This document shows, piece by piece, positions 8,910 through 14,044 of a stretch of DNA of 14,913 bases. The translations under genes and the position numbers were made by a program. This DNA is from a virus (taxonomy: Duplodnaviria; Heunggongvirae; Uroviricota; Caudoviricetes), in the IMG/VR virus record IMGVR_UViG_3300021467_000082, one strand, 5' to 3'. The notes below the pieces were generated by a model. That model was not told the origin of the DNA. It saw only the letters and a program-made list of their open reading frames with translations, and did no database searches. Position 1 is the stretch's first letter; the number at the start of each line of letters is the position of its first letter.

Positions 8910-8998
8910 CAGGCTGACATGTTATCGACTACTGGATTTACATCCAGCCGCATGGAATATAGTTTCCACTTTCCTTATTTATTGCTGAAGTCAGCCTT
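8910..8998 (-). ncRNA. Putative structured RNA, UUCAGCAA element copy A
   Basis: Minus strand A-AGGCTGAC-TTCAGCAA...CAT-GTCAGCCT-G: 8 bp terminal stem and two internal hairpins (TGGAA/TTCCA, CTGGA/TCCAG); no ORF; 26 nt downstream of tRNA-Ser(GCU). Confidence 0.7.
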
Positions 8999-9024
8999 AT
9001 TTCTATGTTTTATGTCTCATAATC

Positions 9025-9116
9025 TGGCGGAGAGGGTGGGATTCGAACCCACGGACGCCTGACAAGACGCCAACGCCTTAGCAGGGCGTCGCCTTCAACC
9101 ACTCGGCCACCACTCC
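9025..9116 (-). tRNA. tRNA-Ser(GCU), long variable arm, CCA encoded, U5:U68 mismatch
   Basis: GGAGTGG/CCTCTCC-G-CCA; ACGCC-CTGCTAA-GGCGT; GTGGG-TTCGAAT-CCCAC. Confidence 0.95.
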
Positions 9117-9228
9117 ATACCAATAATTACCAAGAATAAGCAGCCAAAAATTCATCAAGCGGTTTAGTTCGTTTGAGAAATTCTTGGTAATGTTTTTCAC
9201 AAACATACAAGGCTGCACCCATTTATGC

Positions 9229-9798
9229 TTATAGTTTAATATTTTTCTCGTTAGCCACTATTTTCCATGTATTCATAAAATCAGCATCAAATTCTTGGAC
9301 AACACCTTTATCTAAAAATTTTCTAAACTCTCTGTTTACAAACTCTTCCAGCGATTTGTCAGAGAATTCTCCTAAATTAGTTGCCAATAACTGTAGTGGT
9401 GAATAAGTAGCATCTTTGAAGACTGCTCCTTGTATATAAGCCGCGAATAAATCGGCGCCTTCTAAGTTAGCAGCAGTCAAATCTGCTCTATTCAAATAGG
9501 TAAATCGTAAATTTGCATTGGTCAATATGCTATTTCTCAATATACTTCTTATTAAATAAGCCTTTTGTATGATAGCATTAGACATATTAGCATAGCTAAA
9601 ATCTGCTTCCATTAGATTAGTATGGCTCAGATTTGTGCCTCGTAAATCACATCCCCTAAAATTCGCTCGGCTCAAATTTGCTTCTCTGAAATCAACGTTT
9701 CGTAAATCTGCATTTTCAAAATTGGCGCGATACAAATTGACTCCTTGAAAAGATCTTTCACCTTGTCCGTACTTAACTATAACATCTTCGGCTTTCAT
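9229..9798 (-). CDS. Pentapeptide repeat protein, 189 aa
   Basis: Many A(N/D)(L/F)xx repeats (ANFEN ADLRN VDFRE ANLSR ANFRG...). True start is MKAEDV at 9798 with a GGAGG SD; the ORF-track extension runs into tRNA-Ser. Confidence 0.92.
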   Translation of the reverse strand: MKAEDVIVKYGQGERSFQGVNLYRANFENADLRNVDFREANLSRANFRGCDLRGTNLSHTNLMEADFSYANMSNAIIQKAYLIRSILRNSILTNANLRFTYLNRADLTAANLEGADLFAAYIQGAVFKDATYSPLQLLATNLGEFSDKSLEEFVNREFRKFLDKGVVQEFDADFMNTWKIVANEKNIKL

Positions 9799-9837
9799 TC
9801 CATCCTCCCAATTAATAAAATATGTTATCATATAAGA

Positions 9838-9927
9838 TGGAGGAGGGAGAGGGATTCGAACCCCCGGTTCCCGAAGGAACATGTGATTTCAAGTCACACG
9901 CCTTAAACCAGACTCGGCCACCCCTCC
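9838..9927 (-). tRNA. tRNA-Ser(UGA), CCA encoded, U73 discriminator
   Basis: GGAGGGG/TCCCTCC-T-CCA; TGTGA-CTTGAAA-TCACA; variable arm GTTCC-TTCG-GGAAC. Confidence 0.95.
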
Positions 9928-9947
9928 CATTTATTCATTTCAATTAT

Positions 9948-9976
9948 ATTATAACATATAATTATAAAAATGTAAA
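9948..9976 (-). promoter_or_regulatory. Sigma70-type promoter upstream of tRNA-Ser(UGA)
   Basis: TTTACA, 17 nt spacer, TATAAT, with an extended -10 TG, in the AT-rich gap between tRNA-Ile and tRNA-Ser. Confidence 0.75.
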
Positions 9977-9981
9977 CCATT

Positions 9982-10052
9982 TGGCGAGAGCTGGAATCGA
10001 ACCAGCATCGAGCGATTATCGGTCGCTTATTCTACCGTTGAACTATCCCGCC
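9982..10052 (-). tRNA. tRNA-Ile(GAU), C33 instead of U33, CCA not encoded
   Basis: GGCGGGA/TCTCGCC-A; AGCGA-CCGATAA-TCGCT; GCTGG-TTCGATT-CCAGC. Confidence 0.92.
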
Positions 10053-10059
10053 TATTAAT

Positions 10060-10461
10060 TTAATCATCTTTAATCCATTCTTCATAACAATTATCACATA
10101 AAACTTTACTCCATTTAATCTTGTTCAATTTTAATCCGCCAGGTTTGCCGCATGTTTCACATGTAGTTAATGATCTATATTCTGCCTCTGTTACTAGATG
10201 TCTTACAGCATCGGCTATTTGTTGAGAAGTTCCATTGGGAAATGAATAATAAAACCTTAACGAACCAAATTTTTCTTTTACTTGATCTGCAACTACTCCA
10301 CCTATTGCTTCTAATACATTTGATAACCAATCTATTAAATCATACCACCCGTCGCCACAAGTAAATCCCCAACCCATAGCCGATTCATAGATTGAAGCGT
10401 TGTAATTTTTATATAGATTGGGATATTTCTTAACTAATTTTTGCTCTAATTCTTTTCGCAT
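10060..10461 (-). CDS. Hypothetical phage protein with C-terminal CxxC zinc ribbon, 133 aa
   Basis: CGDGW...QVKEKFGSLRFY...CETCGKPG...CDNC, a pattern I recognise from phage hypothetical proteins; AGGAG SD. Confidence 0.82.
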   Translation of the reverse strand: MRKELEQKLVKKYPNLYKNYNASIYESAMGWGFTCGDGWYDLIDWLSNVLEAIGGVVADQVKEKFGSLRFYYSFPNGTSQQIADAVRHLVTEAEYRSLTTCETCGKPGGLKLNKIKWSKVLCDNCYEEWIKDD

Positions 10462-10465
10462 ATTA

Positions 10466-12352: not shown

Positions 12353-12439
12353 TCACTCCAACAATTCATTAAAATCGTCAATTAATACTTGTTTAAATTC
12401 AGGGTCTAACTCTACTAAATTATATTTATTTAAATAGAA
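12353..12439 (-). pseudogene. C-terminal remnant of gene Z (paralog of 13476-13766)
   Basis: LNKYNLVELDPEFKQVLIDDFNELLE vs LNKHNLVELEPEFEEILVKRFNELLE (18/26 identical); preceded by an in-frame TAA, no in-frame start. Confidence 0.8.
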
Positions 12440-12503
12440 TTACACAAATTATTAAAATCATAACTCCCATTATAATCCTCTTTCCATGTTTTAGTTTATA
12501 ATT

Positions 12504-12576
12504 TGCTCCGAGGGGGATTCGAACCCGCCGTCACAGGATTGAAAGTCCTGTATCCTAACCATTGAACGACCGGAGC
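12504..12576 (-). tRNA. tRNA-Glu(UUC), CCA not encoded, C:C mismatch in T stem
   Basis: GCTCCGG/TCGGAGC-A; CAGGA-CTTTCAA-TCCTG; GCGGG-TTCGAAT-CCCCC. Confidence 0.92.
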
Positions 12577-12661
12577 ATTTATCTATCACCCTTAAGCGTT
12601 TTAAGTATTGTTTTAACATTTCTTGGTCGCTCTAATTTTGATAGTTCATATTCTAAGGTTC

Positions 12662-13180
12662 CTATAAAAGCATATATAAACTATCACTTCCATTAATAAC
12701 AATGGCATCTTCGTATTCAATAAAACCATGTACCAAAAGGTTATATGCTTTTTTAATACGTAGTATAAGCCTTTTAAACCAACTTACGTCTTTCCGAGTA
12801 TCTACTATATTAACTGTTCCATAGAAACTTAGAATATTATTAAATTCCTTATTATATTCTAATTCATCAGCATCACGAGCGCGCGCCAATCTATGAAATA
12901 CGACATCATCAAATTTTGATAATTTCATAACGCGATTTGCCGGTATAGGTCTGTGTCGCCCACTTTTATTCCTGTTGTTAACTCTTTCTGTAAGATAAGA
13001 CTTCTCTTCATAGGAGAAATAGCCTATCAAATCCTCCGGTCTAGCCGTAACCCCTCTTAATTTCATGTTCCTTACATCAGCTGGTTTCCATGGAATATAA
13101 ACCCATTCGCCTTGTTTTAATTTATGCTCGCCGGCAATTCGTTCTGCGTCTTTAAACCGTTTAGCACTGATAAGTTTCAT
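12662..13180 (-). CDS. Fusion ORF: unrelated ~81 aa N-terminus plus degenerate copy of gene B, with C-terminal frameshift
   Basis: Residues 82-162 align to ORF 11759-12109 with a 7-aa deletion and CGC->RAR. Removing 2 nt from the AT run at 12672-12678 restores AFIGTLEYELSKL (cf. AFIEALEYGRDKL) up to a stop at 12579-12581. Confidence 0.7.
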   Translation of the reverse strand: MKLISAKRFKDAERIAGEHKLKQGEWVYIPWKPADVRNMKLRGVTARPEDLIGYFSYEEKSYLTERVNNRNKSGRHRPIPANRVMKLSKFDDVVFHRLARARDADELEYNKEFNNILSFYGTVNIVDTRKDVSWFKRLILRIKKAYNLLVHGFIEYEDAIVINGSDSLYMLL

Positions 13181-13189
13181 TTCTTACCT

Positions 13190-13479
13190 CTATTTTGATT
13201 TATTATTTAATGTAACTGCATATGATTCGTTTTTAACTTCATCACAGAATCGTAATAGATTTGTAGCAAAAACCTCTAAGGAAGTAAAACATCTTTTACC
13301 TTTAAATCTAACAACATCTTTACATATACTATAGTCATAATTACTTATTTAGCAATAGTCTAATGCACCATTATAAAAAGAATGATACATTAGACTATCT
13401 TTTTATGTAGACGTACTTCAAATTTTATATGATCTATATGAAATGTCTCTTCTATAAATTCTTCTTTGGTGTAATTCAT
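13190..13479 (-). pseudogene. Decayed paralog of gene A (frameshift plus premature stop)
   Basis: MNYTKEEFIEETFHIDHIKFEV vs MEYTKKEYYEHAFSIQNNRFEL; after a frameshift at the A-run 13400-13404 and a TAA at 13349-13351, VVRFKGKR..LEVF..L...VK vs VFVFSGKK..MENF..L...VK. Confidence 0.72.
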
Positions 13480-13766
13480 TTATCTTCCTCCAATAATTCA
13501 TTAAACCTTTTTACTAATATCTCCTCAAACTCTGGTTCTAACTCCACTAAATTATGTTTGTTTAATTTATTTTCTAGGTTTGATAATGAAGCATAAAATG
13601 CTTTTGTAGTTGTTATTTCAGTTTCAAATATGTCAGATGGATTTACACTTGTTAATCCAATTTCTATCATAATCGAGCCTAAATGATCTGCGTCATAATT
13701 CTCAGACAGTCTATTGATTAATTCTTGAACTTTTTCTAATTTTTTTAGTTCAACCTCAATTCTCAT
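13476..13766 (-). CDS. Hypothetical protein (gene Z of duplicated block, intact), 96 aa
   Basis: ORF track; GAGGT SD; ATGA-coupled to the A paralog. Confidence 0.8.
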   Translation of the reverse strand: MRIEVELKKLEKVQELINRLSENYDADHLGSIMIEIGLTSVNPSDIFETEITTTKAFYASLSNLENKLNKHNLVELEPEFEEILVKRFNELLEEDK

Positions 13767-13799
13767 TATAACCTCACTTATATCCCATTATTGTTATAT

Positions 13800-13872
13800 T
13801 GGAGCGGAAGGAAGGAATCGAACCTTCATCTGTAGATTGGGGATCTACCGCTCTACCATGAGCTACTTCCGC
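13800..13872 (-). tRNA. tRNA-Gly(CCC), C33 instead of U33, U73, CCA encoded
   Basis: GCGGAAG/CTTCCGC-T-CCA; GTAGA-TCCCCAA-TCTAC; GAAGG-TTCGATT-CCTTC. Confidence 0.92.
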
Positions 13873-13876
13873 TCAT

Positions 13877-13939
13877 CAGAGTGGCGCTTTGGCGTTTGGA
13901 TTAGCCGTCCAGACCAATATGTTTGCTGAAGCCACTCTT
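13877..13939 (-). ncRNA. Putative structured RNA, UUCAGCAA element copy B
   Basis: Minus strand A-AGAGTGGC-TTCAGCAA...GCCACTCT-G; internal TGGA-CGGCTAA-TCCA hairpin; 4 nt upstream of tRNA-Gly. Confidence 0.7.
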
Positions 13940-13960
13940 ATTAATTATTTTTTTACTAAG

Positions 13961-14044
13961 CAGGATGACATGCCAAGGCTAATCGGATCTTATTCCGACT
14001 AGTAAAGGATTTGAACCTTTTGTATTTTTGCTGAAGTCATCCTT
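13961..14044 (-). ncRNA. Putative structured RNA, UUCAGCAA element copy C
   Basis: Minus strand A-AGGATGAC-TTCAGCAA...CAT-GTCATCCT-G; contains the T-arm-like AAAGG-TTCAAAT-CCTTT and a 9 bp hairpin CTAGTCGGA-ATAAGA-TCCGATTAG; 6 nt downstream of tRNA-Leu. Confidence 0.72.

Follow-up and report, generated by a model that had tools for sequence, protein, structure and literature searches.

Conserved particles of Ro60 and Y RNA occur from bacteria to humans, and their partners and roles are poorly known outside a few species. Among the tRNA genes of bacteriophage T4 lie those of two small stable RNAs, species 1 and 2 (rnaC and rnaD), which are processed with the tRNAs and whose function is unknown; they are not known to have a Ro60-like partner. 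Here we examined three structured elements, A, B, and C, on the minus strand of a 14,913-nt stretch of DNA (the window; IMG/VR record IMGVR_UViG_3300021467_000082) that derives from an uncultured large phage. We consider, with a probability of about 0.72, that A-C are members of a widespread family of phage noncoding RNAs that is the functional, and probably evolutionary, counterpart of the bacterial Y RNAs.

In YrlA, a bacterial Y RNA, a conserved 5'-side motif (GNCGAAN0-1G) follows just after the 5' strand and is the proposed contact site of Ro/Rsr, and Ro60 together with Y-like RNAs is known from mycobacteriophages, CcrColossus, and Bacillus phage G (Chen 2014, PMC4201824). In Thermus phage phiLo, two CGAA-bearing RNAs (Yrl1 and Yrl2) encoded upstream of the Ro60 gene bind the protein and the host PNPase (PMC12135203), and surveys of jumbo phages recorded a ROT/TROVE protein with a 'tRNA-like partner' (PMC7824862). 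Protein gp130 of Bas63 (Felixounavirus) is reported to have a Ro60-like fold, is encoded directly upstream of a tRNA block, and was found in a knockout screen to counter the Ppl defense system; its authors guessed that some of the 'tRNA genes' may be Y RNAs, naming no RNA (bioRxiv 10.1101/2024.10.10.617714). A concrete and testable candidate RNA partner for the very large phage family of DUF2828 proteins, and candidate 'Y RNAs' for a Ro60-like protein implicated by that screen against bacterial defense, are what the elements described below would provide.

A covarying terminal stem and a conserved CAGCAA motif

Elements A-C share a common plan on the minus strand, which consists of ATA, an 8-bp terminal stem with AG at its start and CU at its end, UUCAGCAA, a variable interior of 37-63 nt, the 3' strand, and G. 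Element A (88 nt, 8910-8997) is preceded by ATA at 9000-8998 and comprises the 5' strand AGGCTGAC (8997-8990), TTCAGCAA (8989-8982), an interior with two hairpins, the 3' strand GTCAGCCT (8918-8911), and the invariant G at 8910. In element B (62 nt, 13877-13938), the 5' strand AGAGTGGC (13938-13931) and TTCAGCAA (13930-13923) are followed by an anticodon-arm-like hairpin at 13911-13897 (stem UGGA/UCCA, loop CGGCUAA), the 3' strand GCCACTCT (13885-13878), and G 13877. Element C (83 nt, 13961-14043) has the 5' strand AGGATGAC (14043-14036), TTCAGCAA (14035-14028), a 5-bp hairpin at 14020-14004 whose 7-nt loop UUCAAAU is T-loop- or anticodon-loop-like, a 9-bp hairpin at 14002-13979, the 3' strand GTCATCCT (13969-13962), and G 13961. 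A sequence-only reading of the window had described three structured copies with a covarying stem and an invariant motif, and this description was borne out by the sequence, by the folds, and by the covariation reported below: the stems of A-C differ by compensatory changes only, and the terminal stem was closed in all three predicted folds (z = -3.6, -2.5, and -4.0 for A, B, and C; fold energy of A, -28.8 kcal/mol).

A mechanical descriptor, defined as an 8-bp stem, exact TTCAGCAA, and the complement within 20-130 nt, matched unrelated phage DNA (2.37 Mb, both strands) at only two places, against three in the 15-kb window, which excludes chance; the bare 8-mer TTCAGCAA alone showed no enrichment. 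The elements had rightly been called unannotated, as Rfam returned no family for A-C even at E ≤ 10. Neither ARAGORN nor Rfam called any of them a tRNA, and a cloverleaf (RF00005) was not found in them. Hammerhead and other self-cleaving ribozymes, as well as terminators, were considered and dropped, given the absence of core motifs, Rfam matches, and U-tracts.

The family suspected from these three copies extends to more than 130 further copies, which covariance-model searches recovered from metagenomic, IMG/VR, metagenome-assembled genome (MAG), and cultured-phage DNA. The first model (R1) was built from the window copies and later gathered 28 copies (alignment A2); model R2 was built from metagenome copies and scored A, B, and C at 57.8 (E = 7e-12), 55.4, and 50.3 bits. 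A metagenome scan filtered for the closing stem yielded many contigs with two to four copies each, the stems varying by compensatory change and the interiors being mostly unrelated to one another. Across the 28 metagenome copies of A2, the stem was 97.7% paired, six of the eight pairs showed a compensatory double change, and the covariation score was 0.632, compared with 0.231 in shuffles (0 of 500 shuffles reached 0.632). The second covariation test used 77 independent IMG/VR copies, which had not entered model building; here the stem was 95.7% paired, seven of the eight pairs were compensatory (141 compensatory cells), and the score was 0.659, as against 0.220 when shuffled and at most 0.14 when the partners were slid by 1-3 columns.

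The constant module that emerged is an end-to-end stem of 7-8 bp, its first pairs (A-U, G-C) nearly invariant, followed on the 5' side by single-stranded U-W-CAGCAA. CAGCAA was invariant in 75-77 of the 77 copies and present in 100/105 copies, and the flanks were likewise invariant, with A before the stem and G after it. Family size ranged from about 45 to 125 nt. Stem G-U pairs were accepted (15 U-G at pair 8 and four at pair 4 in the 77-copy set), which indicates an RNA on the element strand. Several other searches gave candidates that were rejected. An IMG/VR scan with the pattern ATAAG-N5-CTTCAGCAA had at least 113 matches, none with an AG-start stem at element spacing followed by G, and the three matches to a stricter pattern were all coding sequence of the D-K-I-D-F-S-K type. 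Model R1 was also run on 80 RNA-ligase loci, where the best matches outside the window (L125, L168, and L160) were coding or on the wrong strand and were attributed to chance. A-C belong to a widespread family of small structured phage RNAs that is apparently undescribed: the literature searched gave no account of the CAGCAA family and none tying DUF2828 to Ro60 or Y RNA, other papers or motif catalogues may describe it, and text matches to UUCAGCAA were siRNA sequences only.

Linkage to a DUF2828 gene encoding a predicted Ro60-like protein

The elements recur beside one protein-coding gene. With the source-phage protein as the tblastn query, DUF2828 genes with 60-65% identity were found to abut the arrays, on the same strand, in L216, L230, L237, L214, L257, and L291; in L216, seven tandem elements lead straight into the gene. 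Model R2 was then applied to 79 IMG/VR loci (0.71 Mb) picked solely for encoding a DUF2828 relative, and all 108 of its 108 matches were on the strand of that gene. At E < 0.01, 65/73 matches lay within 700 nt of the gene ends (median distance, 128 nt on the upstream side and 164 nt on the downstream side). Positive loci carried one to seven copies and made up 19 of the 21 loci at a protein identity of at least 39% and 11 of the 41 at 30-34%. Five whole phage records (37-186 kb) had 25 of their 26 R2 matches clustered at the DUF2828 gene. As a control, 80 RNA-ligase loci (1.36 Mb) gave a sole R2 match at E < 0.1, some 100 nt downstream from a distant DUF2828-like gene, and one other weak match.

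The same arrangement recurs in contigs of MAGs and genomes, the Fervidobacterium thailandense chromosome among them, and in cultured phages, so that nearness to a Ro60-type gene on its own strand was seen in DUF2828 loci, whole phages, MAGs, and cultured phages alike. Five CAGCAA copies were found in Aeromonas phage LAh_8 and two, upstream of the DUF2828 gene, in Listeria phage P100. Escherichia coli phage mio has a copy between tRNA-Glu and tRNA-Met (L436:4710-4788, 27.3 bits) and three weaker ones, all within the block of tRNAs lying just downstream from the DUF2828 homologue. A hypothetical coding sequence of mio, mio_111 (L436:5379-5609, minus strand), is overlain by a plus-strand R2 match (5380-5516) and abutted by a second (5293-5372); this coding-sequence call may be spurious. 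The source phage itself carries at least six copies, namely A, B, C, two in L196 (1785-1854 and 1871-1937, about 2 kb past the window end, in other assemblies of the same phage), and one in L331. This sixth copy (L331:9933-9990, 43.5 bits with R2) occupies a 105-nt gap before the DUF2828 gene of the phage and ends at the ribosome-binding site of that gene, which was reached by contig walking 23 kb beyond the window.

The source-phage partner protein (L329:20-1441, 473 aa) matched Pfam DUF2828 (5.7e-30) and DUF7788 (7.5e-27). Its AlphaFold2 model, computed from a 36-sequence alignment, had a pLDDT of 84.3 and a pTM of 0.84. When this model was compared with the PDB using Foldseek, the top 13 matches were all Ro60 structures (Thermus phage phiLo, Xenopus, human, and Deinococcus; E = 2e-7 to 2e-5), the best being the phiLo protein (E = 2.3e-7). 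VIA gave Z values of 12.3-17.2 over 373-407 residues, covering both the helical ring and the vWA domain, compared with no more than 7.9 for vWA-only proteins. The architecture that distinguishes Ro60/TROVE proteins, a helical-repeat ring followed by a vWA domain bearing a MIDAS (metal-ion-dependent adhesion site) motif, was thus recognized in the predicted structure and in the sequence, which contains DTSAS. The relationship to Ro60 is visible in the model at the level of the fold only. A protein search returned 2,510 proteins at E ≤ 1e-5. Among cultured phages, 693 records contained homologues, and Felixounavirus, Listeria P100-like, Campylobacter, Staphylococcus, Vibrio, and Aeromonas phages were represented; many of these homologues carry the annotation 'RNA-binding protein', 'vWFA protein', or 'DUF2828', the mycobacteriophage ones being labeled 'Ro-like RNA binding protein'.

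Proximity to tRNA genes is also common. Among 58 elements in tRNA-bearing loci, 34 had a tRNA at a distance of no more than 200 nt (for 16 of them, no more than 15 nt), and all 34 shared the tRNA's strand. In locus L230, two elements stand on either side of the Ro60-like gene; a tRNA precedes the first pair, and after the second pair come a tRNA, an RNase P RNA, and another tRNA, the spacers being all but absent. Its RNase P RNA (L230:5753-6065, minus strand) is of bacterial class A and scored 175 bits, above threshold; lying within a phage-like tRNA/CAGCAA/Ro60-like block, it suggests a phage-encoded RNase P RNA. In the window, all 13 tRNAs are on the minus strand together with A-C (ARAGORN, Rfam), and the previously noted distances of 26, 4, and 6 nt agree with the tRNA calls: tRNA-Ser(GCU) (9025-9116; Rfam tRNA, 58.2 bits) lies directly upstream of A at 26 nt, tRNA-Gly(CCC) (13800-13872) directly downstream of B at 4 nt, and tRNA-Leu(UAA) (14051-14138) directly upstream of C at 6-7 nt. 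The sequence-only reading had placed the elements always beside tRNAs. This describes the window and many relatives; however, the defining neighbor is the gene for the Ro60-like DUF2828/vWA protein, even though it is 23 kb off here, and adjacency to tRNAs is secondary.

tRNA-like interiors and comparison with Y RNAs

The interiors of the elements frequently resemble parts of tRNAs. In 35 of 104 distinct interiors, a hairpin of mostly 5 bp carried a 7-nt loop of the form Y-U-NNN-R-N (usually CU-NNN-AA), which makes it a canonical anticodon arm; in shuffles of matched composition, such hairpins numbered 2.5 ± 1.6 (maximum, seven). Their 'anticodons' were varied (UGA, GAU, CAA, GCA, GUU, CAU, UGG, and others), and seven interiors had T-loop-like UUCRA loops. 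With regard to the window, B has an anticodon-arm-like hairpin, C only a T-loop-like hairpin (sorted as anticodon-arm-like in the interior survey) and a long hairpin, and A neither clearly. The anticodon-arm mimics hint at a connection with tRNA-targeting immunity.

In the two long copies of L216 (1106-1216 and 1224-1349), a T arm is followed by a closed acceptor-like hairpin and then by a D arm, and the terminal stem occupies the place of the anticodon stem. The Rfam YrlA model matched them with 40.7 bits (E = 1e-5) and 29.9 bits over model positions 23-85 of 114, below threshold. The terminal stem had been described as acceptor-stem-like, a description that does not hold for these members: as in YrlA, it replaces the anticodon stem, and the acceptor-like stem is the internal closed hairpin.

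Just downstream of the DUF2828 gene of L379, three tRNA-shaped RNAs of 112-119 nt with open acceptor ends were observed (5536-5647, 5704-5822, and 5938-6055; Rfam tRNA, 53, 43, and 43 bits). In the last two, which are near-identical, a closed hairpin with ACAGCAA after it replaces the anticodon arm, and a short loop connects what are normally the 3' and 5' flanks, so that the element is circularly permuted; in the first, a comparable hairpin comes before UAUCUGCAA. Since the flanks persist when joined in a loop, they are part of the recognized module and not merely cleavage sites. In L414, a 58-nt copy of the GTPase-associated center of 23S rRNA (the L11-binding domain; 2833-2890, Rfam LSU positions 1092-1149, 58 bits) stands directly after the DUF2828 stop codon at the head of a CAGCAA array, and it may be an rRNA-domain mimic.

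The sequence-only reading found no named family for the elements; the relative that can be named is the Y RNAs, specifically YrlA. As in YrlA (RF02553; PMC4201824), a terminal stem is formed between the 5' and 3' ends, a single-stranded motif comes right after the 5' strand, and the folds and the covariation show that this stem closes a large internal module. The long members follow YrlA in the order of their parts, from the variable arm through the T arm and the closed acceptor-like hairpin to the D arm, and both RNA types lie beside and on the strand of a Ro60-type gene in an RNA-repair gene context. Unlike YrlA, the family described here has U-W-CAGCAA in place of GNCGAAN0-1G, most members carry a single anticodon-arm-like or other hairpin instead of the tRNA-like domain, and copies occur in arrays of two to seven and scattered among tRNAs. 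The best reading is a divergent Y-RNA family in which UWCAGCAA replaces the CGAA motif of YrlA. In mycobacteriophage Appletree2, gp52 ('Ro-like RNA binding protein') is a homologue of the partner protein (tblastn, E = 1e-35), a YrlA match of 39.8 bits over the full model lies just downstream of its gene, and the R2 search detected no CAGCAA element. One protein superfamily thus pairs with YrlA in one lineage and with CAGCAA RNAs elsewhere, which is the strongest argument for equivalence to Y RNAs.

The resemblance to phiLo (PMC12135203; PDB 9KOP, 9L5Y) lies in a phage protein of Ro60 fold with small RNAs near its gene (two, just upstream, in phiLo) and, for Yrl1 and Yrl2, in the stem-bulge-stem design with a 5'-side loop motif and a variable module. 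Whereas phiLo has a canonical Ro60 homologue and CGAA RNAs, the protein here is of the DUF2828/DUF7788 type without a TROVE sequence match, the motif is CAGCAA, and copy numbers are higher. The comparison with Bas63 was made through the congeneric phage mio and not through gp130 itself; mio has a DUF2828 homologue in the same position and R2 matches between the tRNAs, and, in contrast to the Bas63 preprint, specific non-tRNA candidate RNAs are identified here. The elements also recall T4 rnaC and rnaD as small RNAs among phage tRNA genes, a likeness at the level of general description.

Proposed function and alternative explanations

Judging from sequence, the elements are likely to be trans-acting partner RNAs of the DUF2828 protein. 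The stem and UWCAGCAA module would form the binding site for the phage Ro60-like ring protein (DUF2828 with vWA/MIDAS, DUF7788), and the variable interior would display a piece of a translation RNA, which could mimic an anticodon arm or a T arm or be an entire tRNA-like domain of the YrlA type. The elements would be transcribed with neighboring tRNAs or with the Ro60-like gene and released by tRNA-type processing through RNase P and 3'-end enzymes. Co-transcription with tRNAs and such a release are plausible on account of the proximity to tRNAs, the nearly spacerless L230 locus, and a promoter and terminator consensus scan that found no convincing site around the window copies, a result that is uninformative in itself. 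At the 5' end of tRNA-Gly(CCC), an RNase P cut would leave a 4-nt tail on B. The resulting ribonucleoproteins might gate the Ro60-like protein or tether it to tRNA-directed enzymes, or they might be decoys, which would place them in the RNA-repair and anti-defense equipment of the phage. The earlier suggestion of a tRNA mimic or protein-binding scaffold is accordingly still plausible in view of the tRNA-like interiors and the linkage to the Ro60-like gene, its specific role being conjectural.

A more specific possibility, which we put forward tentatively and regard as rather unlikely in full, is modular display: a constant handle for the Ro60-like protein would carry swappable mimics (anticodon arms, T arms, tRNA bodies, and, in one array, an rRNA GTPase-center mimic) that serve as decoys or baits against host defense nucleases cleaving tRNA or rRNA, or as recruiters of repair enzymes. 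If the elements are phage Y RNAs, many unannotated gaps in phage tRNA clusters would be genes for a second class of tRNA-associated RNA and not spacers.

Several results weigh against an equivalence to Y RNAs. The canonical Ro-binding motif GNCGAAN0-1G is rare, G.CGAA occurring in the first 40 nt of one of 105 copies and in none of A-C, and no copy reached the Rfam YrlA gathering score (best, 40.7 versus 69 bits, the match being to the tRNA-like core only). The partner protein had no match to Pfam TROVE (PF05731), and phmmer and profile searches of PDB sequences with it found no Ro60. KVP40, which has a homologous gene, gave no R2 match, and A-C are 23-30 kb from the DUF2828 gene, unlike most relatives. 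We infer binding to the DUF2828 protein from synteny only, and expression, processing, stability, and biological role are likewise inferred. Lastly, the gene-adjacent copy abuts the Shine-Dalgarno sequence, and at least that copy could be a cis-acting operator.

This last point leads to an explanation in which the elements are cis-acting signals and not stable RNAs, either operators for autoregulation of DUF2828 or sites of processing and punctuation by RNase E, III, or P in tRNA and mRNA precursors. In L331, L216, L230, and L237, CUG is invariably the end of the gene-proximal copy, and AAAGGAG and the start codon come right behind it; distant homologues have a single copy at -50 to -115 before the start codon, and both the invariant flanks (A before the stem, G after) and the lack of standout promoter-like or terminator-like sites nearby would fit such signals. 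Tandem arrays of up to seven copies, however, and copies downstream of the gene or between tRNAs many kilobases off are difficult to reconcile with them; complete tRNA-like domains and anticodon-arm mimics would be superfluous in an operator, and in L379 the stem and motif sit inside a tRNA-shaped RNA with their 'ends' joined in a loop, so that the flanks are not merely cleavage sites. We therefore regard a purely cis-acting function as improbable, while cis and trans roles could coexist.

Two other explanations are far less probable. DNA-level repeats spread in tRNA regions, such as miniature mobile elements or sites of recombination or DNA-protein binding, would account for at least six dispersed copies in one genome and for the inverted-repeat termini, but the strand polarity relative to the gene is absolute (108/108), the stem G-U pairs would count as mismatches at the DNA level or if the opposite strand were transcribed, and the interiors are unrelated between copies; we give this very little weight. 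Even less credence is due to decayed tRNA genes or fragments, products of duplication in the tRNA cluster with no function of their own. Their location among tRNAs, the resemblance of interiors to anticodon arms, T arms, and whole tRNA bodies, and weak matches of the Rfam tRNA model across adjacent L216 units are what such pseudogenes would produce. Nevertheless, neither the invariant CAGCAA nor the covarying terminal stem is a feature of tRNAs, and both are kept where the partner proteins are only 30% identical, A-C had no tRNA match even at E ≤ 10, and the linkage is to a protein gene and not to tRNAs as such. Covariation and conservation thus already largely refute this explanation.

As for the surroundings of the elements, an RNA ligase gene (8209-8874, minus strand; Pfam RNA_ligase PF09414, E = 1.3e-27) begins 35 nt downstream of A and is context, part of an RNA-repair setting; further genes of the window encode an RlaP nucleotidyltransferase as well as a Pol-beta-like protein. 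No close relative came to light among cultured phages, to which Megablast matched the window in tRNA-Lys fragments only. A 151-aa open frame (10644-11099, minus strand) passes through tRNA-Gln(UUG) at 10859-10933 on the same strand. A Cas7 gene (PF05107) was called at 2-724 on the plus strand (L196:18152-18898), opposite to the tRNA cluster, and beside it lies a Thy1 gene interrupted by a LAGLIDADG domain. In P100, a match to ROOL RNA (L438:1429-1980, 86 bits, E = 4e-16, just under the gathering score) was located about 700 nt upstream of the two CAGCAA elements and the Ro60-like gene gp165, and an RtcB-type 'tRNA splicing ligase' gene 1.3 kb downstream. Finally, ARAGORN detected tRNAs with a CUA anticodon ('tRNA-Pyl'), of the amber-suppressor type, in the tRNA clusters of unrelated giant-phage contigs (L125:15545-15617 and L128:3861-3933).

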